From NCBI GenBank assembly GCA_965372695.1, contig CBDVDJ010000049.1, positions 1-10,212 on the forward strand: a DNA stretch of 10,212 nucleotides. The letters are read 5' to 3'. The notes under the pieces were generated by a model. It was given only the letters and a program-made list of their open reading frames with translations. It was not told where the DNA came from and did no database searches. Below are positions 257 to 9,487 of this stretch, in pieces (within the stretch, counting starts at the first letter, position 1; each line of letters begins with the position of its first letter). The translations under genes and the position numbers were made by a program. The DNA comes from an uncultured bacterium (lineage in GTDB: Bacteria; Krumholzibacteriota; Krumholzibacteriia; WVZY01; JAKEHA01).

Positions 257-655
257 ATGCCTAGCTTCGTAATCACAGAGAAATGCGACGGGTGCAAGGC
301 GCTCGATAAGACGGCTTGCCAATACATCTGCCCGAATGACCTCATGGTCCTGGACAAGGACACGATGAAGGCTTTCAACCAGGATGTAGATATGTGCTGG
401 GAGTGCTATAGCTGCGTCAAGATTTGTCCGGTCCAGGCGATCGAGGTCCGTGGCTATGCTGATTTTGTGCCGATGGGCGCGAGCGTGACTCCGCTGCGGG
501 CAACCGACTCGATCATGTGGACCCTCAAGTTCCGAAACGGCATGCTGAAACGGTTCAAGTTCCCGATTCGCACTACCGAAGAGGGACAGGCGCAGCCATT
601 CGATCACTACCCGACGGGCGACGATGATCTCAAGAGCCAGACGCTCATGTGCTAG
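257..655 (+). CDS. aprB: Adenylylsulfate (APS) reductase beta subunit, 2x[4Fe-4S] ferredoxin-like
   Basis: The 132-aa ORF begins MPSFVITEKCDGCKALDKTACQYICPNDLMVLDKDTMKAFNQDVDMCWECYSCVKICPVQAIEVRGY, the characteristic AprB N-terminus with its Cys motifs. It continues with the MWTLKFRNG..RFKFPIRTT segment. A GGAGG Shine-Dalgarno at 247-251 lies 5 nt upstream of the ATG at 257. Confidence 0.95.
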   Translation: MPSFVITEKCDGCKALDKTACQYICPNDLMVLDKDTMKAFNQDVDMCWECYSCVKICPVQAIEVRGYADFVPMGASVTPLRATDSIMWTLKFRNGMLKRFKFPIRTTEEGQAQPFDHYPTGDDDLKSQTLMC

Positions 656-777
656 CCGGCTGGACTGAATACCGAAGTCGGCCCGGTCAAGATCGACAAG
701 ATCCTCACGCTCTAGTCGAGCGCAGGTTGTCTGACAACGAACCGATTCTTCGTCAACGAACCAAGGAGAAAGACGAA

Positions 778-2670
778 ATGGCGGAATTTGAAACTATAAC
801 GGTCGAAACAGACGTGCTGATTTGCGGCGGCGGCATGGCCGCCTGCGGCGCAGCGGTGGAAGCGTCTTATTGGGCCAAAAAGCAAGGATTGAAGGTCACA
901 TTGGTTGACAAGGCGGCAATGGACCGCTCGGGCGCCGTCGCGATGGGACTGTCGGCCATCAACCAGTATGTGGATCTGAACAGCGGTAACAACACTCTGA
1001 ACGACTACGCCGACTACGTCCGCAACGACCTCATGGGTATTACCCGCGAGGACCTGGTGGTCAGCATCGCGCGCCACGTAGACTCGTCGGTCCACTTGTT
1101 CGAGAAGTGGGGTCTGCCCATCTGGAAGGATCAGGAGGGCAAATACGTACACGAGGGTCGCTGGCAGCTGATGATCAACGGCGAGTCGTACAAGGTGATC
1201 GTGGCAGAAGCTGCCAAAACCGCGTTGGCAGAGGCAAATGGCGAATACTTCGAACGCGTATTCATCACTCATCCGCTGATGGACGGCGACACGTGTGTGG
1301 GCGCGATCGGCTTCAGCACGAGGGAGAACAAGATATACGTGTTCAAGGCCAAAGCCACGCTGGTTTCCATGGGTGGCGCGGTGCACGTGTTCAAGCCGCG
1401 GTCGACCGGTGAGGGCTTCGGCCGCTCCTGGTACCCGCCGTTCAACTCGGGCGCGAGCGCGTTCTTCACCATCTACGGCGGCGCCGAGATGACCTGCCAG
1501 GAAGTCCGGTTCATTCCTGTCCGCTTCAAGGACGCGTACGGACCCGTGGGCGCCTGGTTCCTGCTGTTCAAGTCGATCGCGACCAACGCGCAGGGCGGCA
1601 ACTACATGCAGGATAATGCCGCGGAGCTCGAAAAGTGGCTGCCTTACGGCAAGGTGAAGCCGCGTCCGGCCAACATTCGTAACTGGCTGATGATGCTGGA
1701 CGTGATGGAAGGCAAGAGCCCGATCTACATGCAGACGGCCGAAGCCATCCAGAGGATCTCCGACGCGGTGCCCGACGAGAAAGAGCGCAAGAAGAAGCTC
1801 AAGGAACTCGAGTCGGAGGCCTGGGAGGACTTTCTGGACATGACCATTTCGCAGGCCATCTTGTGGGCCGCGTCGAACGTCGAGCCCGAGAAACAGCCCT
1901 CCGAGATCATGGCGTGTGATCCTTACTTCATCGGTTCGCATTCCGGCGCGTCCGGCGCCTGGGTTTCGGGACCGGAGGATCTCCAGACATCCAATACCAA
2001 GGATGAATACTTCTGGGGCTACACGAACATGTGCACGGTCAAGGGCATGTTCGCCGCGGGCGACGCCTCGGGAGCCTCGAGCCACAAGTTCTCTTCCGGC
2101 TCGCACGCCGAGGGACGCATCGCTGCCAAGGCCATGGTCGCCTACGCCGTGGACAACAGCTCGCCGCCGAACGTGGACCAGGCCCAGATCGACGCGTTGA
2201 CCGCGGAGATCCTCAAGCCGCTCGAGACTTTCGAGAAGCACAAGGATGCGACGACCGACCCGAACATCAACCCGGAGTACATCCGACCCAAGCAGTTCAT
2301 GTACCGGCTGCAGAAGATCATGGATGAGTACGCCGGAGGTGTTTCGAGTCAGTTCAAGACGAGCGACAAACTCATCGAGAAGGGAATGGAGTTGTTGGCC
2401 TTCCTCAAGGAAGACTCGGCCAAAATCGGTGCGGAGAACCTGCACGAGCTCATGCGGGGCTGGGAGAACGTCCACCGCATGTACCAGGCGGATTCTCACA
2501 TGCGTTCCATCCTCTTCCGCGAGGAGACACGTTGGCCGGGCTACTACTTCCGGTCCGACAAACCGAGCATGGACAACGAGAACTGGCTCGCCTTCTGTAA
2601 CTGTACCTACGACAGGAACACTGGCGAGTGGGAGATGATCAAAAGGCCCGTTAAATACCTTACGCAGTAA
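778..2670 (+). CDS. aprA: Adenylylsulfate (APS) reductase alpha subunit, FAD flavoprotein
   Basis: The 630-aa product starts at ATG 778, in frame with track ORF 649..2670. AAGGAGA at 763-769 is a good RBS. The N-terminal FAD fold DVLICGGGMAACGAAVEAS is present, along with fumarate-reductase-family flavoprotein blocks (MGLSAINQYV, FAAGDASGASSHKFSSGSHAEGRIAAKA, RWPGYYFR). It immediately follows aprB. Confidence 0.95.
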   Translation: MAEFETITVETDVLICGGGMAACGAAVEASYWAKKQGLKVTLVDKAAMDRSGAVAMGLSAINQYVDLNSGNNTLNDYADYVRNDLMGITREDLVVSIARHVDSSVHLFEKWGLPIWKDQEGKYVHEGRWQLMINGESYKVIVAEAAKTALAEANGEYFERVFITHPLMDGDTCVGAIGFSTRENKIYVFKAKATLVSMGGAVHVFKPRSTGEGFGRSWYPPFNSGASAFFTIYGGAEMTCQEVRFIPVRFKDAYGPVGAWFLLFKSIATNAQGGNYMQDNAAELEKWLPYGKVKPRPANIRNWLMMLDVMEGKSPIYMQTAEAIQRISDAVPDEKERKKKLKELESEAWEDFLDMTISQAILWAASNVEPEKQPSEIMACDPYFIGSHSGASGAWVSGPEDLQTSNTKDEYFWGYTNMCTVKGMFAAGDASGASSHKFSSGSHAEGRIAAKAMVAYAVDNSSPPNVDQAQIDALTAEILKPLETFEKHKDATTDPNINPEYIRPKQFMYRLQKIMDEYAGGVSSQFKTSDKLIEKGMELLAFLKEDSAKIGAENLHELMRGWENVHRMYQADSHMRSILFREETRWPGYYFRSDKPSMDNENWLAFCNCTYDRNTGEWEMIKRPVKYLTQ

Positions 2671-2684
2671 GGGCCTGTGGGTTT

Positions 2685-2728
2685 GCGGGATCTTTGGGCG
2701 TCGCGTCGCGGCGTCCAGAGATCCCCGC
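2685..2728 (+). terminator. Imperfect GC-rich stem-loop 15 nt after the aprA stop; possible attenuating terminator or mRNA-stabilising hairpin
   Basis: The left arm GCGGGATCTTTGG (2685-2697) pairs with the right arm CCAGAGATCCCCGC (2715-2728), with one bulge and one mismatch, around a GC-rich loop. No clear U-tract follows, so it is not a textbook intrinsic terminator. Confidence 0.3.
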
Positions 2729-2852
2729 TCCCGACGCTTTGCAGTTATTCCCGTTCGAACGTCCGGATGTGTTACAGTACTGCGCGGCTGCGGCCGGGTG
2801 GTAACCGCTGTCAGGCCGGCACCTTGGGATTATTGATCTAGTGAGGAAACCG

Positions 2853-3137
2853 ATGGCAAAACACCCTGGAACCTGCACCCATTGTGGATCCCGTCTCGAG
2901 AAGTGGCGTGTTCCCGACGACGCTACCTGGGACGAGGAGTTTTTTTACGTCTGCTTCAACGATGATTGTTCCTACTACAAATCGGGGTGGGCCTGGATGA
3001 AGGAACGTTACAACCAGCGCGCTTCGTACCGGTATGCGGTCAACCCCGGTGCCGCCGTCTCACTGATGATACCGGTCTGGTCGGACTCCGCAACGCGGGA
3101 GATGATCGAGGAGCACACCGAAGGAGGCGAGGAATGA
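2853..3137 (+). CDS. Small four-Cys zinc-ribbon-like protein, aromatic-rich, function unknown
   Basis: Track ORF 2841..3137. I prefer ATG 2853 as the start because GAGGA at 2843-2847 lies 5 nt upstream. The 94-aa product has C8-x2-C11-x22-C34-x4-C39 (CTHC...CFNDDC), followed by a W/Y-rich segment (SYYKSGWAWMKERYNQRASYRY) and an acidic tail. Its TGA stop overlaps the next gene's ATG (ATGA at 3134-3137). Confidence 0.65.
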   Translation: MAKHPGTCTHCGSRLEKWRVPDDATWDEEFFYVCFNDDCSYYKSGWAWMKERYNQRASYRYAVNPGAAVSLMIPVWSDSATREMIEEHTEGGEE

Positions 3138-4021
3138 GCGACGACAAGGATCCCGCCCAGTCCAATGACCAGCTCGATAAGCTGAAGGAGAAGATAGTCA
3201 CGGATTATCCCCGGCTGGGCCCTGACGACAACTTCCAGTTCGGGTGTCATCCCGGCGTTTCGTGTTTCAACCAGTGCTGCGGCGACGTAAACATTTTCCT
3301 GTCTCCGTACGACGTGTTGCGCATGAAGAAACGTCTCGATATGACCTCGAGCGAGTTCCTCGAGAAGTATACATTTCTCCCTGTGCAAAAGGACATGAAG
3401 ACGCCCGTGGTTGTGTTGCGCTTGAACGACGACGAGGCCAAGACCTGTCAGTTCCTTACCGAGGGGGGGTGCGGCATCTATTCGGATCGGCCGTGGCCCT
3501 GCCGCATGTATCCCCTGGGACTGGCGGCTCAGAAGGACACGCCGGACGGCTGGCGCGGCGACCGGTTTTACTTCCTCATGGAAGAGGAGGGGTGCAAGGG
3601 GTTCAGCGAGCCCAGGGAGTGGACGGTCCGACAGTGGCTCGAAGATCAGGGGCTCGAGGAGTACGACGAGTGGGGAGAGGCATTCAAGGAATTGACGCTT
3701 CACAAATTCTTCGAGGACGGTGGCACCCTCTCACCGGAGAGGATGCACATGATGTACACCGCGTGCTACGATCTGGACAAGTTTCGGGAGTTCGTGTTCG
3801 AAAGCACGCTCCTGCAGAAATTCGTGGTGGATGAGGACTTCGTGGAAGAGATGCGCTATGACGACGAAGTATTGCTTCGTTTCGCGTTTCTGTGGCTGCG
3901 GTTCAGTCTTTTCGGCGAGAAGACTGTGCAAGTGAAAGCGGACGTCGTCGAGTCGTTCAAGGGAAAACGCGACAAGAAGGGATCGTTCGATCAGAAGTCG
4001 GCGGGGAATACTCCTGAATAA
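3134..4021 (+). CDS. Extended YkgJ/UPF0153-family (CxxCxxCC-type) cysteine-cluster protein, paralog 1
   Basis: The start is taken at ATG 3134, with AAGGAGG at 3121-3127 upstream. The longer track ORF from 2966 would overlap the zinc-ribbon gene. The 295-aa product has the N-terminal cluster CHPGVSCFNQCC, then KTCQFL..GGCGIYSDRPWPCRMYPLG, the typical family core, plus CKG. It has a roughly 150-aa C-terminal extension ending in the LWLRFSLFGEKT motif. Confidence 0.8.
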   Translation: MSDDKDPAQSNDQLDKLKEKIVTDYPRLGPDDNFQFGCHPGVSCFNQCCGDVNIFLSPYDVLRMKKRLDMTSSEFLEKYTFLPVQKDMKTPVVVLRLNDDEAKTCQFLTEGGCGIYSDRPWPCRMYPLGLAAQKDTPDGWRGDRFYFLMEEEGCKGFSEPREWTVRQWLEDQGLEEYDEWGEAFKELTLHKFFEDGGTLSPERMHMMYTACYDLDKFREFVFESTLLQKFVVDEDFVEEMRYDDEVLLRFAFLWLRFSLFGEKTVQVKADVVESFKGKRDKKGSFDQKSAGNTPE

Positions 4022-4091
4022 AATAGATGATGAGTGGACACGGGTCGACGGAACAAGATCAAGACAAGGGTGATCGGCGGCGCGATCAGGT

Positions 4092-4931
4092 ATGAGGGAA
4101 ATCGAACGGCTGAAGAAGGAGATCCTCGAGCACTACCCCAAGCTCAAAAAGGACGATTCGTATTCGTTCTCCTGCCATCCGGGCGTACCTTGCTTCAACG
4201 CATGTTGCGCGGACGTCAATATTTTCCTGACTCCATACGATATTCTCAGGTTGAAGAACAATCTCGGGATGAGTTCGGACGAATTTCTTTCCAGACATAC
4301 AGTATCCCCGTTCGACAAAAATTTGAAGTACCCGGCAGTTCAGCTGGCGATGAACGACGACGACGAGAAAACGTGTCCGTTCGTCGGCGAACGCGGCTGC
4401 GGGGTCTACGAGGACCGGCCCTGGGCGTGCCGGATGTATCCGCTGGGTATGGGGTCGCAGAAGGACTCCGGCACCGGCGCCGAAAGTGACTTCTATTTTC
4501 TGCTCGAGGAGGACGTGTGCAAGGGGCACGACGAAGACCACAAGCAGACGGTGGCACAGTGGCTGGAGACTCAGGGGATCGCCGAGTACGACAAGATGGG
4601 ATACTACTTCAAGGAACTGACTCTTCACGAGTATTTCCAGACCGGCGAGAATCTCACCGGCCAGAAGATCGAGATGTTCTTCACGGCGAGTTATGACCTG
4701 GACAAGTTCAGGAGCTTTTTGTTCGACACCACGTTTTTCGACAAGTTTGAAGTCGATGAAGAGACGCAGAAGAAAATCAAGTCCGACGACGTCGAACTGC
4801 TCAAATTCGGGTATTTCTGGTTGAGATTCTCTCTTTTCGGAGAGCGAACGTTGAAGGTCAAGGGAGACGTGCTCGAAGCGCGGCAGAAAAGGCTGGAAGG
4901 CAAGAAGAAGCTGGAACAGAAACAGAACTAG
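4092..4931 (+). CDS. Extended YkgJ/UPF0153-family (CxxCxxCC-type) cysteine-cluster protein, paralog 2
   Basis: This 279-aa ORF is collinear with paralog 1 along its whole length: CHPGVPCFNACC, KTCPFV..RGCGVYEDRPWACRMYPLG, CKG, and FWLRFSLFGERT. ATG 4092 is the first start after an in-frame TGA at 4071. The Shine-Dalgarno is weak. Confidence 0.8.
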   Translation: MREIERLKKEILEHYPKLKKDDSYSFSCHPGVPCFNACCADVNIFLTPYDILRLKNNLGMSSDEFLSRHTVSPFDKNLKYPAVQLAMNDDDEKTCPFVGERGCGVYEDRPWACRMYPLGMGSQKDSGTGAESDFYFLLEEDVCKGHDEDHKQTVAQWLETQGIAEYDKMGYYFKELTLHEYFQTGENLTGQKIEMFFTASYDLDKFRSFLFDTTFFDKFEVDEETQKKIKSDDVELLKFGYFWLRFSLFGERTLKVKGDVLEARQKRLEGKKKLEQKQN

Positions 4932-4988: not shown

Positions 4989-5918
4989 ATGAGTGGACTG
5001 CAGCTGCTGATGTACGGTGCCTATGCCGTTTTTTTCATAGGTACGGCGTACAGGGCCTACCGGATGGCGACGATGCCCATGCATCTCCGTTGGGATCTGT
5101 ATCCGATACCGCACGAAAAGGGCAAAGCGGATTACGGCGGTTCATACTACGAAGAAATCGACTGGTGGACAAAACCCGCGAAGGTGTCTGTTTCCAACGA
5201 GTTGAAGGAAATGGCCAGGGAAATCATCTTTATCCAGTCGATGTACCACAATAACCGGTCCCTCTGGATGTTTTCGTTCCCATTTCATTTTGGACTCTAT
5301 TTATCAATCGTATTCGTTCTGCTGGTTTTTCTGGGGGGACTGCTCACGCTGCTCGGAGTACCGGTGTCCGCCGAATCGGCCAATATCTTCGGGAAAGCCC
5401 TGCACTACATTACGATGCCGTTCGGAATCGTGGGCGCCGTTATGGGTGCGTTCGGCGCTCTGGGATTGTTTGTCAGCCGATTCGCCAGGGGCGAACTGCG
5501 AAGGACGTCGGTCTGGACCGATTACTTCAACCTGATTCTGCTCTTCGCCATCTTCGCCAGCGGTCTCGCCGTCTGGGCGACGGAAGACATTTCGTACTCC
5601 GCCTTGAGGGTGTTCATCACGGATTTGATCTCCTTCAAAGGCACGCCCGCTGTGTCTACGGGTTTTGCCGTCCACATGGCGCTGGCGGCTGCGTTCCTGA
5701 TCTACCTTCCCTTTACGCACATGACCCACTTTGTGGGCAAGTACTTCACCTACCACAAGGTGCGATGGGAAGACCAGCCCAACATCAGGGGCAGCAAACT
5801 CGAAAAGCGGATCAACGAGGCGCTTGGTTACCATATCGACTGGTCGGCTCCCCACATTAAAGAGGGAACGTGGGCCGAAGCGGCAACTGCAACCGAGGAG
5901 AAGACCGAAAGTGAGTAA
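4989..5918 (+). CDS. NarI/DsrM/HmeC-like integral membrane di-haem cytochrome b (nitrate reductase gamma-subunit family)
   Basis: The 309-aa product has about 5 hydrophobic helices: LLMYGAYAVFFIGTAY, LWMFSFPFHFGLYLSIVFVLLVFLGG, ITMPFGIVGAVMGAFGALGLFV, YFNLILLFAIFASGLAVWA and FAVHMALAAAFLIYLPF. The N-terminal YRxxRMxxMPMHLRWDLYPIPHE block and the C-terminal LPFTHMTHFVGKYF block are typical of DsrM/HmeC/NarI-like proteins. Candidate haem-ligand His residues sit in helices 2 and 5. GAGG at 4979-4982 is a plausible RBS. Confidence 0.8.
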   Translation: MSGLQLLMYGAYAVFFIGTAYRAYRMATMPMHLRWDLYPIPHEKGKADYGGSYYEEIDWWTKPAKVSVSNELKEMAREIIFIQSMYHNNRSLWMFSFPFHFGLYLSIVFVLLVFLGGLLTLLGVPVSAESANIFGKALHYITMPFGIVGAVMGAFGALGLFVSRFARGELRRTSVWTDYFNLILLFAIFASGLAVWATEDISYSALRVFITDLISFKGTPAVSTGFAVHMALAAAFLIYLPFTHMTHFVGKYFTYHKVRWEDQPNIRGSKLEKRINEALGYHIDWSAPHIKEGTWAEAATATEEKTESE

Positions 5919-7536
5919 TGACGACAACAACAAGAAAACGACGATAAAGGAGTTCTGCCGCCGGAAAGGGCAGATCGTCAAGCTCGACGTCTCCGAGTTT
6001 CCGCCTTTGCCGCCGCCGTACGACAAACTCGACCTCGAGCCCGGAATCAAGGAGCTCTCGGACGAGTTGAAGGAGAAGTACGAAACGGATCTGGACGGCG
6101 TTTCGGCGCTCAAACTCCCCCGTCCCGAGACGGAGGAAGAAAAGCGCGAGCTGGTCCAGAGTTTCCTGACGGGACTCAAAAAGACTTTCGAGCGGGAAAA
6201 CAACTGGGGATTCCTGCAGCCGTTGTTTCTGACGATCGAGTACTGCGCGAAGTGCCAGACGTGTTCCAGGGCATGCCCTATTTATAACGAATCGGGTCAC
6301 GAGGAGATTTATCGGCCGACGTTTCGCGCCGATATACTCCGGCGCCTGTACAAAAAGTACGTACGACCGGGGGGCAAGATCCTCTCGAAGATCTCGGGGG
6401 AGGACATCGACGCCAGCTGGACGATGATTGCCCGGCTGATGGAGCTGAGTTATCGCTGCACCGTTTGCCGCCGCTGCGCGCAGACGTGCCCGATCGGCGT
6501 TGACAACGGGCTGGTGACGCGTGAACTCCGCAAGATCTTCAGCCAGGAGATGGGAATCCAGGTCGAGCAGCTGCACAAGAAGGGTTCCGTCCAGCAGCTG
6601 AAGTCGGGGTCCAGTACGGGCATGACGCCGGTCGCGTTTCTCGACAACATCGAGTTCCTCGAGGAGGAAGTCGAGGAGCGGACGGGGATGGAGTTCAAGT
6701 GGCCGATGGACAAGTCGGGCGCCGACATTCTGCTCATCCACAACGCGGGCGAGTACCTGGCGTGGCCGGAAAACCCCGAGGCGTTTGCCATCATTCTCGA
6801 GGCGGCCGGTATCGACTATACCCTGTCCAGTGACCTGCTCGGATACGACAGCGTCAATTACGGGGTGTGGTATGACGACGTGCAGTTCGCAAAGGTGGCG
6901 CTCAAACACGTCGAGATCGCCAAGAAGCTCGGTGTCAGAAAGATCGTCCTCGGCGAATGCGGTCACGCGCACAAGGCTCTCACCGTGATCGCCGACCGCG
7001 TGTTCTCCGGAGATTATAATATTCCCCGGGAGAGCTCGCTGACACTTCTGCGCGATATCATAAAGGAAAAAAGGATCAAGGTCGATCCGGCTCGCAACGA
7101 CGACATCATCACGACGCTTCATGATCCGTGCAACCTCACGCGGCTGATGGGGATCGTGGAGCCGCAGCGCGAAGTGATCAAGGCGGTATGCAATAACTTC
7201 CGGGAGATGACGCCCCACGGCGTCCACAACTACTGCTGCGGAGGCGGAAGCGGGTTTGCGATAACCGCCAACACCAACTTCCCCGACTGGCGTACGAGCG
7301 TAGCCGCCCGCGTCAAGCTGCGCCAGATCCTGGACGTGTTCCAGGATGTCATCAAACCGGATCAGAAGAAGTACGTTTGTGCACCCTGCTCGAACTGCAA
7401 GGGAGCCATTCGCGACACACTGGCGGCCTACGGCGTGTACGAGAGATGTAACATCCTGTATGGCGGCCTGGTAGAACTCATCGTCAACGCGATGGTCGAC
7501 GTTCCCGAGGGATTTCTCGAGTGGGAATGGCACTAA
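5911..7536 (+). CDS. DsrK/HmeD/HdrD-like iron-sulfur protein (two ferredoxin-type [4Fe-4S] motifs plus a CCG cysteine-rich domain)
   Basis: Two CxxCxxCxxxCP motifs are present (CAKCQTCSRACP and CTVCRRCAQTCP). The C-terminal CCG domain reads HDPCNLTR...NYCCGGGSG...CAPCSNC. GECGHAHK is a degenerate N-terminal CCG-like segment, as in DsrK-type proteins. The start is assigned to GTG 5911, with GAGGAG at 5895-5900 upstream, giving 541 aa and an 8-nt overlap (GTGAGTAA) with the upstream gene. The track start at 5731 would overlap that gene by 188 nt. The exact start is uncertain. Confidence 0.85.
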   Translation: MSNDDNNKKTTIKEFCRRKGQIVKLDVSEFPPLPPPYDKLDLEPGIKELSDELKEKYETDLDGVSALKLPRPETEEEKRELVQSFLTGLKKTFERENNWGFLQPLFLTIEYCAKCQTCSRACPIYNESGHEEIYRPTFRADILRRLYKKYVRPGGKILSKISGEDIDASWTMIARLMELSYRCTVCRRCAQTCPIGVDNGLVTRELRKIFSQEMGIQVEQLHKKGSVQQLKSGSSTGMTPVAFLDNIEFLEEEVEERTGMEFKWPMDKSGADILLIHNAGEYLAWPENPEAFAIILEAAGIDYTLSSDLLGYDSVNYGVWYDDVQFAKVALKHVEIAKKLGVRKIVLGECGHAHKALTVIADRVFSGDYNIPRESSLTLLRDIIKEKRIKVDPARNDDIITTLHDPCNLTRLMGIVEPQREVIKAVCNNFREMTPHGVHNYCCGGGSGFAITANTNFPDWRTSVAARVKLRQILDVFQDVIKPDQKKYVCAPCSNCKGAIRDTLAAYGVYERCNILYGGLVELIVNAMVDVPEGFLEWEWH

Positions 7537-7555
7537 CCGCGCGGAGGGACCTATT

Positions 7556-7930
7556 GTGGCCAAGAAAATCCTGATTGTAGACGACGAAGCCGACGTCAGA
7601 ACTTATCTGGAAGTACTGTTCCAGGAAAACGGGTACGAAACCGCGGTAGCCGCCGACGGCGACGAGGCGATGCCGAAAGTTCATGAGTTCAAACCGGACC
7701 TGATCTCTCTCGACATCATCATGCCGCGCGAGAGCGGCCAGAAATTTTACCGCACGCTGGTAAAAGACGCGGAGTTCGGCAAAACACCCGTCATTATCTG
7801 CAGTGGTGTAACGCGCTACAAAGAGCTGTTCTCGCGCGACCACAAGACGATGCCCAAACCGTTTGCCTTCATCGAGAAACCGATCGACAAAGGCGAACTC
7901 CTGGGCAAAATCAAGGAAGCCATCGGGTAG
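7556..7930 (+). CDS. Single-domain CheY-like response regulator receiver (no output domain)
   Basis: This 124-aa product has a GTG start with GGAGGG at 7543-7548 upstream. All canonical receiver residues are present: DD (9-10) in KILIVDDE, the phospho-acceptor D53 in LISLDIIMP, S83 in IICSG, and K108 in FIEKP. It starts 19 nt after the DsrK-like stop. Confidence 0.9.
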   Translation: MAKKILIVDDEADVRTYLEVLFQENGYETAVAADGDEAMPKVHEFKPDLISLDIIMPRESGQKFYRTLVKDAEFGKTPVIICSGVTRYKELFSRDHKTMPKPFAFIEKPIDKGELLGKIKEAIG

Positions 7931-7939
7931 CGCCGTGAT

Positions 7940-7961
7940 GGCCCGGGGCGCCACCCCGGCC
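7940..7961. terminator. GC-rich hairpin between convergent genes (possible bidirectional terminator)
   Basis: GGCC(C)GGGG (7940-7948) pairs with CCCCGGCC (7954-7961) around the loop CGCCA, giving an 8-bp G/C stem with one bulge. It sits in the 34-nt gap between the receiver gene stop (7930) and the SPFH gene stop (7965). There are no flanking U/A tracts. Confidence 0.4.
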
Positions 7962-7964
7962 TCG

Positions 7965-9113
7965 TCACGCTGCTTCCGGACCTTCGGCGGCGGCGGTTCC
8001 GGCGGCGGAGCCGGCGTCTGTCCCGGTATCCCCGGGCAGGTCGGCCGTCTTTGCGAGCGCCGTCAGGCCGCCCAGAACACCCAACCCCATCGATTCGACC
8101 GCTGATGACGGTACGATGATCATCGACCCCTTCTGCCGCAACCCCTCGTAGACCATGTTCATCGCGCGCAGGTGCAAAGCGACCGGATTGTCCTGGTAGT
8201 GGTAGGCGGCGGCGGCGAATTTTTCGGCGATCTCGGTCTCGGCGGTGCCGAGGATGATCCGGCTCTGGCGTTCGCGTTCCGCCTGCGCCTGTCGTGACAT
8301 CGCGTCTTCGAGGCCTTTGGGTATCACGATGTCGCGGATCTCGACGTCCTGGGTGGTGACACCCCACGCGTTGGTTTTTTTGTCGAGGAGCTTCTGGATC
8401 TCGGAGCCGAGACGGTCCCGTTCCGACAGCAGGGTGGCGAGGTCGTTTTTTCCGATCGCGTTACGCAGCGCCGTCTGCGCCGACAGGATGACGGCGTCCT
8501 CGAAATGCTCGACTTCGAGTACGGACTTCTGCGCGTCCCACACCATCCAGAACGCGATCGCGTCGACGCTGACCGGCACCGTGTCCGCCGTCAGCGTTGT
8601 CTCGGCGCTGAAGTCGGTGACGCGGATTCGCTGGTCTACGAACTGGGCGACTTTGTCGATGACGGGAATGACGGCGAAGAGCCCCGACGACCGTATCGCC
8701 TTGAATTTGCCAAATCGCAGCACGACGGCGCGTTCCCATTGATAAGCGATCTGCACAGACGTCGACACCAGTACTGCGACGGTGATGGTGACGAGTAACA
8801 CGTCGTCCAGCGGCCGCATGACGAGGTACGCGATGAAACAGTCCGCCGTGGCGAGCACGACGACGGCTTCCCATATCTGTGTGAGCCGTATCAAGCCCGC
8901 CAGGATAAGCGCCGATCCGAGAAACAACGCAACGGCGTCCGCGCTGAAGCCATGGAGGCGGAGGTGGACGATCAGGCCGGCGACGAACAGTGCCACCAGC
9001 AGCAGAACGTTCAGGGGTGCAAACCTGAAATCGGCCCTCATGGTGGCGGCAAAGCGTTCCAGTGAAATACCGGGTACCGATCGGCCTTCAGCCGTTTTTA
9101 CGGATCCAGTCAT
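7965..9113 (-). CDS. SPFH/band-7 (stomatin/prohibitin-like) protein with a polytopic N-terminal membrane region
   Basis: This 382-aa product has about four N-terminal hydrophobic helices. A canonical SPFH core follows: ERAVVLRFGKFKAIRSSGLFAVIPVIDKV..., DAIAFWMVWDAQKSV, ALRNAIGKNDLATLLSERD, VEIRDIVIPKGLEDAMSRQAQAERERQSRIILG, and a C-terminal Ala/Gly-rich tail. AAGGAG on the minus strand (9127-9122) lies 8 nt upstream of the ATG. Confidence 0.9.
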   Translation of the reverse strand: MTGSVKTAEGRSVPGISLERFAATMRADFRFAPLNVLLLVALFVAGLIVHLRLHGFSADAVALFLGSALILAGLIRLTQIWEAVVVLATADCFIAYLVMRPLDDVLLVTITVAVLVSTSVQIAYQWERAVVLRFGKFKAIRSSGLFAVIPVIDKVAQFVDQRIRVTDFSAETTLTADTVPVSVDAIAFWMVWDAQKSVLEVEHFEDAVILSAQTALRNAIGKNDLATLLSERDRLGSEIQKLLDKKTNAWGVTTQDVEIRDIVIPKGLEDAMSRQAQAERERQSRIILGTAETEIAEKFAAAAYHYQDNPVALHLRAMNMVYEGLRQKGSMIIVPSSAVESMGLGVLGGLTALAKTADLPGDTGTDAGSAAGTAAAEGPEAA

Positions 9114-9487
9114 GACGACGACTCCTTTCGTTGCCGCAGTCCTTCCAGCACATCGTCGAGCATGAGCCCGTAGCTGGAAGCGCGAGCCATTAGTTCGGTC
9201 AAAATCTGATCGAGCATTCTCTGTTTTTCCAGCCGGTCGATCTCCGGCTTGCGGCTGCCGATAAAAGTCCCCGAGCCCTGTTGTGTGTCGAGCGTTCCTT
9301 CGATTTCGAGTTCGCGGTACGCGCGCACCACTGTGTTCGGGTTGATCGCGAGTTCGACGGCGAGCTGGCGAACCGTCGGCAGGCGGTCTCCGGGGCCAAG
9401 CTCGCCGCTGGCAATGCCGAACTTGATCTGTTCGATAATCTGCCGGTAGAACGGCACGCCGCTCTTGTTATCCAGAATAAATCCCAT
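9110..9487 (-). CDS. GntR-family transcriptional regulator, YtrA-like subfamily (short effector/dimerisation domain)
   Basis: This 125-aa product has a winged-HTH block PFYRQIIEQIKFGIASGELGPGDRLPTVRQLAVELAINPNTVVRAYRELEIEGTLDTQQGSGTFI, followed by only about 50 aa, as in the YtrA subfamily. GGAG (9499-9496) lies 8 nt upstream of the ATG. Its stop overlaps the SPFH gene start (ATGA at 9113-9110). Confidence 0.9.
   Translation of the reverse strand: MGFILDNKSGVPFYRQIIEQIKFGIASGELGPGDRLPTVRQLAVELAINPNTVVRAYRELEIEGTLDTQQGSGTFIGSRKPEIDRLEKQRMLDQILTELMARASSYGLMLDDVLEGLRQRKESSS

Follow-up and report, generated by a model that had tools for sequence, protein, structure and literature searches.

The window analysed here, a stretch of 10,212 nucleotides from contig CBDVDJ010000049.1 (GenBank assembly GCA_965372695.1) of an uncultured member of the Krumholzibacteriota, carries the genes of the two subunits of adenosine 5'-phosphosulfate (APS) reductase, aprB and aprA, followed by a small zinc-ribbon gene (Zn) and by two adjacent genes for YkgJ-type cysteine-cluster proteins, Y1 and Y2. 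The adjacency of Y1 and Y2 very probably arose by the swap of a gene cassette and not by duplication in situ, judging from trees and identity profiles of the surrounding genes. Their family is genetically tied to AprBA and to Hdr-like modules, whether QmoABC, QmoAB with HdrCB or HdrD, or a pair of NarI-like and HdrD-like proteins, and its members are probably iron-sulphur (Fe-S) accessory proteins linked to AprBA and Qmo. Taken as a whole, a cassette origin combined with an AprBA/Qmo-linked family provides the best explanation of the locus, with a probability of roughly 0.6. Comparison loci are denoted by L-numbers.

In the closest relatives a single Y gene occupies a fixed place in an apr cassette. 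With proteins clustered at 90% identity, searches gave 2270 relatives for Y1 and 5897 for Y2; the top matches are about 297 amino acids (aa) long for the Y1 type and about 276 aa for the Y2 type. A genome scan, with one genome per species, provided 80 loci from Gemmatimonadota, Planctomycetota, a Desulfobacteraceae metagenome-assembled genome (MAG), Zixibacteria, Ignavibacteria, Kryptoniota, Elusimicrobiota, Dehalococcoidia and others, and the gene order throughout these many phyla is aprB-aprA-Zn-ribbon-Y. AprA was found in 60 of the 61 loci having more than 3 kb of upstream sequence, and a Zn-ribbon homologue lies directly upstream of the Y gene in 78 of 79. A second Y copy was present in none of the 80 genome loci, 74 of which have at least 1 kb downstream. 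The Y1-Y2 pair is confined to the window's own lineage, and this architecture is common to the window, L081 (300 kb) and L172 (26.7 kb); a 9881-bp contig appears to carry both copies too.

Neighbour-joining trees of the Y proteins and of AprA yielded the same two clades, A (Gemmatimonadota, Planctomycetota and Desulfobacteraceae UBA2156) and B (Zixibacteria, Ignavibacteria and others). The AprA of the window nests inside clade A, with 81–87% identity to clade A loci versus 69–76% to those of clade B, the Zn-ribbon protein shows a median identity of 63% to clade A versus 47% to clade B, and Y1 likewise groups with clade A. Y2 is 60–66% identical to its counterparts in the Zixibacteria/Ignavibacteria loci L055, L066 and L045 of clade B. 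Among the genes that follow Y2, the DsrK-like protein is 74–79% identical to those of the same three loci, and the response regulator (RR) is 70% identical to that of L066 and 65% to that of L045, in the same position; the best locus matches of the NarI-like protein are to the Zixibacteria L066 (60%) and L055 (53%), the corresponding values for its L081 orthologue being 60% and 56%. In 200 bootstraps of a reduced set, Y1 had only clade A neighbours in all 200, Y2 had only clade B neighbours in 198, and the two were sisters in none. Duplication in situ, including the old duplication that an earlier note on this DNA had offered beside different origins, is rejected on these trees and bootstraps.

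The same change of affiliation was found in L081. Upstream of aprB, its siroheme genes (cysG-like) and its TauE, QmoC-like and Sat (85%) genes best match clade B, its AprA (88%), Zn (79%) and Y1 (78%) best match clade A, and Y2, NarI, DsrK-like and RR match clade B again. Synonymous divergence (dS) between the window and L081 amounts to 0.24 for aprB, 0.30 for aprA, 0.53 for Zn and 0.29 for Y1; for the backbone it is 0.94–1.39 for NarI, DsrK-like and RR and saturated for Y2, with 0.91 for sat between L081 and L172. Nucleotide identity to L081, in 150-nt bins, is mostly 0.83–0.95 over positions ~300–4050, with 0.91–0.95 across the end of Y1, and outside the cassette it is 0.72–0.84 before position 300 and 0.67–0.85 from 4051 on, the drop falling exactly at the Y1/Y2 spacer. 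A search of this spacer for promoters or terminators gave none above the chance expectation from shuffled sequence.

We propose that a Zixibacteria-type locus, of the order sat-aprBA-Zn-Y-NarI-HdrD-like-RR, received an aprB-aprA-Zn-Y1 block of Gemmatimonadota/Planctomycetota type. The incoming block would have displaced the resident aprBA-Zn, with the right-hand crossover placed before the resident Y gene, now Y2. On the left, aprB is a plausible homology anchor because AprB is about equally similar to its counterparts in clades A and B. So read, the window is a clear case of aprBA and its accessories being exchanged as a whole cassette between phylum-level lineages, which matters wherever aprA serves as a marker of phylogeny or function.

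The earlier note had described a collinear, full-length pair of paralogues, and the two complete open reading frames (ORFs) indeed align with 145 of 276 residues identical (53%; BLASTP, a single 1-residue gap, E 1e-113). Its estimate of about 60% identity in the N-terminal part and less in the C-terminal part was roughly right, the values along Y1 being 57% (residues 13–130), 50% (131–165) and 53% (166–275). Both proteins also carry, as claimed, the eight cysteines in the pattern C-x5-C-x3-CC ... C-x7-C-x9-C ... C-x-G (C38, C44, C48, C49, C105, C113, C123 and C154 of Y1) and the three motifs DRPWxCRMYPLG, YDLDKFRxFxF and (L/F)WLRFSLFGE(K/R)T. No variation in cysteines or motifs was seen across alignments of 14 and of 97 homologues, and the cysteines are 96–100% conserved among 117 representatives of the wider family. 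Pfam family PF03692 matches residues 43–129 of Y1 and 33–119 of Y2 above its gathering cutoff of 23 (profile positions 4–72 of 85), and since it is confined to the N-terminal part, roughly residues 35–130, about 150 residues of each protein lie outside any Pfam family, which bears out the unplaced C-terminal half of the earlier description. The AlphaFold2 model of Y1, with a predicted local distance difference test (pLDDT) score of 79.5, has helices over residues 165–285 and lower pLDDT in the Cys-bearing loops, the model being metal-free; comparison of the C-terminal helical domain of Y1 and Y2 with structures in the PDB gave no match. The impression that Y2 is more AT-rich at synonymous sites did not hold, GC content at third codon positions (GC3) being 0.770 in Y1 and 0.750 in Y2; the gap in overall GC (0.562 versus 0.526) sits in codon positions 1 and 2.

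The Pfam family to which Y1 and Y2 belong is known but uncharacterised, and it is the family itself that is the interesting object. The YkgJ/CxxCxxCC family (PF03692, "putative zinc- or iron-chelating domain"; "Fe-S-cluster containing protein" in COG) shares with them an N-terminal Cys cluster followed by further cysteines in a C...C...RP..CR.YP context, and NCBI labels close homologues "YkgJ family cysteine cluster protein". Escherichia coli YkgJ is a short, single-domain protein of unknown function. Y1 and Y2 differ from the name-giving CxxCxxCC arrangement in their C-x5-C-x3-CC spacing and in an extra helical domain of ~130–150 aa, and their subfamily is set apart by its apr/qmo linkage and by a split into two groups, alpha and beta.

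A profile search of 1.84 billion representatives returned 2704 clusters at 50% identity, 1291 of them at E ≤ 1e-10. Many of the matches are full-length, at 240–270 aa, and most of the best 150 of the 2704 clusters are matched over profile positions of about 10–260. Y1 and Y2 fall within a two-domain subfamily of about 230–300 aa in which PF03692 is followed by the helical C-terminal domain, and the window, with the order aprBA-Zn-Y1-Y2-NarI-HdrD-like, has the subfamily's neighbourhood of aprBA and/or qmo/hdr genes together with an Ogr-like Zn-ribbon. Contexts of distant members include qmoA-qmoB-hdrD-small-Y-Y, qmoC-Y, aprAB divergent from Y-SDR-Y (SDR, short-chain dehydrogenase/reductase) and a Y-Y tandem. 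A metagenome scan contributed 80 further loci, and 83 non-duplicate loci were analysed. A tandem pair occurs in 52 of these 83, apr, qmo or hdr genes in 29 of the 42 loci of at least 8 kb, and a Zn-ribbon homologue (40–50% identical) is frequent, usually just past the pair or as the last gene of an apr-qmo operon. In a tree of 160 sequences, upstream copies fell into alpha in 55 of 56 cases and downstream copies into beta in 54 of 56; alpha also holds all the single-copy genes of clades A and B, as well as Y1 and Y2, and named beta matches come from Desulfatiglans, Desulfobacteraceae, Desulfobacterales, Thermodesulfobacteriota, Aminicenantes and Nitrospira. By this tree the subfamily comprises two ancient orthogroups, whose members often lie side by side in apr/qmo loci.

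The earlier note had asked whether the two copies form two conserved orthogroups that always occur together. Tandem alpha-beta pairs of that kind are indeed present elsewhere in the family, but Y1 and Y2 do not make up such a pair, both being alpha (clades A and B, respectively), and the interpretation given there is to that extent partly supported. In Desulfatiglans TRIP_1 (LR026961), an example of a Desulfobacterota-type apr-qmo locus, the genes aprB-aprA-qmoA-qmoB-hdrC-hdrB-Zn(PF04606)-SEC-C are convergent with an alpha (252 aa) and a beta (269 aa) gene that overlap by 4 bp. Pairs of this type resemble that of the window in their two-domain, eight-Cys proteins, in a PF04606 Zn-ribbon neighbour and in linkage to aprBA and qmoAB, but they combine alpha with beta and are often overlapping or closely spaced, whereas the window would hold an alpha (A) and an alpha (B) copy joined by recombination.

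The neighbours of alpha-beta pairs include, in Desulfobacterota-like loci (among L085–L169), a nucleoside diphosphate kinase (17 loci), an approximately 255-aa protein with a SEC-C motif (16 loci) and a SEC-C/TPR protein (6 more); examples of such flanking genes are L114 994–1416, L110 1922–2686 and L170 8609–9022 and 10890–11654. DUF5663 and HSDR_N_2 proteins also recur beside these pairs. When the alpha-beta neighbourhoods were searched for genes of the S-adenosylmethionine (SAM) cycle or other informative recurrent genes, only the kinase, SEC-C, DUF5663, HSDR_N_2 and housekeeping genes were found. A 690-aa protein from a Joint Genome Institute metagenome, P0373, consists of a radical-SAM domain (PF04055) fused to a complete two-domain YkgJ-type protein, which may indicate that one branch of the family, if not more, uses SAM/Fe-S chemistry.

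Linkage to an Hdr-like electron-input module is a constant feature of the single-copy loci. In clade A, the Y gene is followed by qmoA-qmoB-qmoC-sat-dsrC...dsrMK, the order in Ignavibacteria and Kryptoniota, and likewise in Bacteroidota loci, is qmoAB-sat-aprBA-Zn-Y-qmoC, and in Zixibacteria it is qmoC-like(-)..sat-aprBA-Zn-Y-NarI-HdrD-like(-RR), such that the Y gene adjoins qmoA, qmoC or the NarI/HdrD-like pair in every case. AprA and Y are co-inherited, as seen from their congruent trees, and identity reaches 73–80% across phyla. Within the window, the stop codon of Zn overlaps the start of Y1 by 4 bp (ATGA), with GGAGG upstream, an overlap that recurs in the relatives' loci, and by this arrangement Zn and Y1 are translationally coupled. 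The finger spacing of the Zn-ribbon, CX2CX22CX4C, is exactly that of Ogr/Delta, and the protein may be either an Ogr-like transcription factor or a structural partner. DVU0851, encoded by the last gene of the Desulfovibrio qmo operon, was considered as its equivalent and dropped, having been reported to lack homologues outside Desulfovibrio.

Each Y protein would bind one or more Fe-S clusters through its eight cysteines, as suggested by the homologous Cys motif of FliB, and, together with the small Zn-ribbon protein, would dock on AprBA and help to connect it, in an accessory or adaptor capacity, with the Hdr-like electron-input module. An accessory Fe-S role in general is probable; the specific role of an electron-transfer adaptor from AprBA to Qmo or HdrD-like modules is put forward tentatively, with the odds somewhat against it. 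This role, favoured over other specific ones, agrees with where the genes lie and with the proposal of an unidentified third partner in electron transfer from Qmo to AprBA (Ramos et al. 2012, PMC3333476). Such a role would explain the keeping of both copies, Y1 for the imported AprBA and Y2 for the resident NarI/HdrD-like module, to which they may respectively be co-adapted. The Y/Zn set, whose genes lie among or next to those of apr and qmo/hdr in Desulfobacterota, Nitrospirota, Zixibacteria, Ignavibacteria, Gemmatimonadota, Planctomycetota and others, is a concrete candidate for a part in the electron route to APS reductase and its energy conservation; it is also a candidate for the methylase of AprA/AprB lysines in Desulfovibrio. 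It is unlikely, though conceivable, that the Zn-ribbon/YkgJ (alpha, beta) set is the missing component of APS reduction, either as a FliB-like methylase or as the third partner of Ramos et al. in electron confurcation, with Y1 and Y2 kept for different partners.

Several points weigh against an AprBA/Qmo-linked accessory family that reached its present arrangement by cassette exchange. Thirteen of the 42 long, beta-anchored loci have no apr or qmo gene within their flanks, and the exact alpha/beta bipartition was recovered in only 24 of 50 bootstraps, with copies assigned mainly by gene position. Codon bias of highly expressed genes may account for part of the low dS in the cassette, a caveat countered by the dS of 0.91 for sat, which is also highly expressed, and by the nearly equal GC3 of Y1 and Y2. 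Metal content and partners are predictions for the whole subfamily, and linkage and congruent trees could mean co-transfer only and not physical interaction. Y1 and Y2 gave no match to Fer4 (CX2CX2CX3CP) or CCG (PF02754) at E ≤ 0.01, whereas the adjoining AprB and DsrK-like proteins do match. FliB, the characterised relative, uses its cluster for catalysis and not as an electron relay (PMC8598068), and the well-studied Desulfovibrio apr-qmo operon, as described in PMC3125180, lacks Y genes. An identity of Y1 and Y2 as ferredoxin-type or HdrB-type (CCG) electron carriers was dropped, neither domain being present.

Within the superfamily, biochemical work is on record for FliB alone, the flagellin lysine-N-methylase of Salmonella. 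A single [4Fe-4S] cluster is bound by its CX4CX3CC motif, eight of its cysteines are conserved, and with SAM and under reducing conditions it methylates lysines of flagellin (PMC8598068). Like Y1 and Y2 it combines an N-terminal Cys motif and eight cysteines with a long, mostly helical remainder; unlike them it is 401 aa long and belongs to a flagellar context, and the C-terminal regions show no detectable relation. No flagellar genes were seen in Y neighbourhoods, the contexts being apr/qmo/hdr or housekeeping. A FliB sequence used as a control scores 268 bits against the FliB model NF038110 (cutoff 85 bits), to which Y1 and Y2 gave no match at E ≤ 0.1. Hhalign of the 97-sequence Y profile against FliB aligned only 33 N-terminal columns (probability 1.5%, E 0.033), and residues 17–113 of FliB align weakly to PF03692, at 14 bits. 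With no match to NF038110 and a 33-column alignment, membership of the FliB family is therefore rejected for Y1 and Y2; the weak relation at the PF03692 level remains, and the proteins have at most a cluster-binding domain in common. The earlier note had set a FliB-like function against its own reading, and of this it stands that FliB is the only characterised relative, with the homology limited to the N-terminal Cys domain.

By analogy with FliB, the apr-linked Y proteins could be [4Fe-4S]/SAM-dependent protein-lysine methyltransferases acting on AprA and AprB, with the C-terminal domain recognising the substrate. We regard this as unlikely, although it survives better than the other alternatives. 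In D. vulgaris, the marked lysines of GPVGAWFLLFK*AK in ApsA and SADSIMWTVK*FR in ApsB are mono-, di- and tri-methylated, and no methylase was named (PMC3125180). Both lysines are present in the window (DSIMWTLKFR in AprB), and among the Y-linked sequences that match the motif search that of AprA is conserved in 88 of 88 and that of AprB in 39 of 40, a conservation that may have other reasons. The Cys motif and SAM-dependent chemistry of FliB and the radical-SAM fusion P0373 also speak for methylation, but the match to FliB is as poor as given above, SAM-cycle genes do not recur in the neighbourhoods, and a three-protein set of Zn, alpha and beta is unusual for a modifying enzyme. The Desulfovibrio apr-qmo operon has no Y gene. 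A motif search confined to the initial ~400 kb of the D. vulgaris proteome file, which covers roughly one third of its proteins, returned no Y homologue.

A somewhat poorer case can be made for a dedicated maturation or assembly factor of AprBA, embedded in the operon and acting in cofactor insertion or complex assembly, for which narJ within narGHJI offers an analogy. The location of Zn-Y genes between aprA and qmoA or qmoC, the co-inheritance of Y with AprA and the translational coupling of Zn and Y are all in line with it, but an eight-Cys protein at the level of identity seen across phyla is atypical of private chaperones, and no likeness to known chaperone folds was found; we give it little credence.

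The fate of Y2 after the swap allows a further reading, in which it is a redundant leftover drifting to loss and Y1 alone is functional. No gene of the operon evolves faster than Y2: when compared with its counterpart in L081 (10959–11819), the window copy shows 73% aa identity, with a nonsynonymous divergence (dN) of 0.19 and saturated dS, against 87–92% identity and a dN of 0.05–0.08 for its flanking backbone genes. Its dN/dS ranges over 0.05–0.29, the upper value being that against L172, compared with 0.11 (L081) and 0.13 (L172) for Y1 and 0.08 for aprA, and it has no Zn-ribbon partner from its own clade. Either constraint was relaxed after the arrival of Y1 or further exchange has occurred. 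Both genes are nevertheless under purifying selection, and the intact frame of Y2, with its cysteines and motifs kept and dN/dS well below 1, and its retention by each of the three sequenced relatives, even though dS between the lineages is saturated, make its decay improbable.

Least probable is the obligate Y1:Y2 heterodimer of the earlier note, kept since an old tandem duplication: the shared cysteines, motifs and purifying selection, the retention of the pair in at least three related contigs (window, L081, L172) and the tandem pairs of the wider family make heteromers plausible for the family as a whole, but the two copies are never sisters and each nests among the single-copy orthologues of other phyla, the nearest loci lack a second copy, a result that the earlier note had itself listed as one under which its idea would fail, conserved pairs elsewhere join alpha to beta and not two alphas, and Y1 and Y2 are parted by 70 bp where Zn-Y1 and the Desulfatiglans alpha-beta pair have 4-bp overlaps, leaving the proposal unsupported.

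In the literature, the architecture of the qmoAB-sat-aprBA-Zn-Y-qmoC loci resembles that reported for Thermonerobacter thiotrophicus and Ignavibacteria GWB2, in which two conserved hypothetical genes ("hyp-hyp") were remarked upon with no family, function or distribution being assigned (Thiel et al. 2019, PMC6338057). It is almost certain that this pair corresponds to the Zn-ribbon gene and the clade B Y gene. The window differs from those loci in having two Y genes and, downstream, a NarI/HdrD-like pair instead of qmoC. Apart from that remark, the searchable literature yielded no functional study of apr-linked YkgJ proteins nor, as far as it shows, any description of the two-domain subfamily linked to apr/qmo, of its division into alpha and beta or of the Zn-ribbon that accompanies it.

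The features of the window are listed in Table 1; the eight genes from aprB to RR all lie on the same strand.

Table 1. Features of the 10,212-nucleotide window, with the profile matches on which the gene assignments are based.
Feature	Positions	Strand	Evidence and remarks
aprB (APS reductase beta subunit)	257–655	+	PF12139, 111.9 bits, and Fer4 domains; left end of the putative imported clade A cassette
aprA (APS reductase alpha subunit), clade A type	about 778–2670	+	TIGR02061, 866.6 bits
Ogr/Delta-like Zn-ribbon, 98 aa	2841–3137	+	PF04606, 29.7 bits (cutoff 26.3); CX2CX22CX4C
Y1, 295 aa, YkgJ family, orthogroup alpha, clade A	3134–4021	+	PF03692, 36.5 bits
Y1/Y2 spacer, 70 bp, probable right-hand cassette boundary	4022–4091		Identity step versus L081
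Y2, 279 aa, YkgJ family, orthogroup alpha, clade B, probable resident copy	4092–4931	+	PF03692, 38.4 bits
NarI/DsrM-like membrane cytochrome b, backbone gene	4989–5918	+	PF02665, 51.2 bits
DsrK/HdrD-like Fe-S protein with CCG domain, backbone gene	5911–7536	+	PF13183 and PF02754 matches; NF045796, 335.6 bits (below the cutoff of 400)
Receiver-only response regulator (RR), final gene of the backbone operon	7556–7930	+	PF00072, 72.8 bits
SPFH/Band-7 protein (N-terminal membrane region) and GntR-family regulator	7965–9487	-	Same place in L081

Three loci depart from the usual cassette order. In a Krumholzibacteriia MAG (L037 9647–10795) an SDR gene comes after Zn-Y and no aprBA lies closer than 10 kb, in a Dehalococcoidia MAG (L075 8002–10789) the order is aprBA-Y with no Zn-ribbon gene, and L088 is the locus in which aprAB is divergent from Y-SDR-Y.

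Positions 4989–7930 of the window hold a trio of NarI-like, DsrK/HdrD-like and RR genes after aprBA, in place of qmoABC. All three also stand behind the Y gene in the Zixibacteria/Ignavibacteria loci L066 and L045, as do the first two in L055; the arrangement points to an alternative, HdrED-like way of feeding electrons into APS reductase. Beyond RR, an insertion or deletion of ~286 nt separates the window (~7950–8100) from L081, between RR and SPFH, and L081 has an extra 69-aa ORF there. In the window, the stop and start codons of the SPFH and GntR genes overlap at 9110–9113, and both genes seem unrelated to the apr genes.

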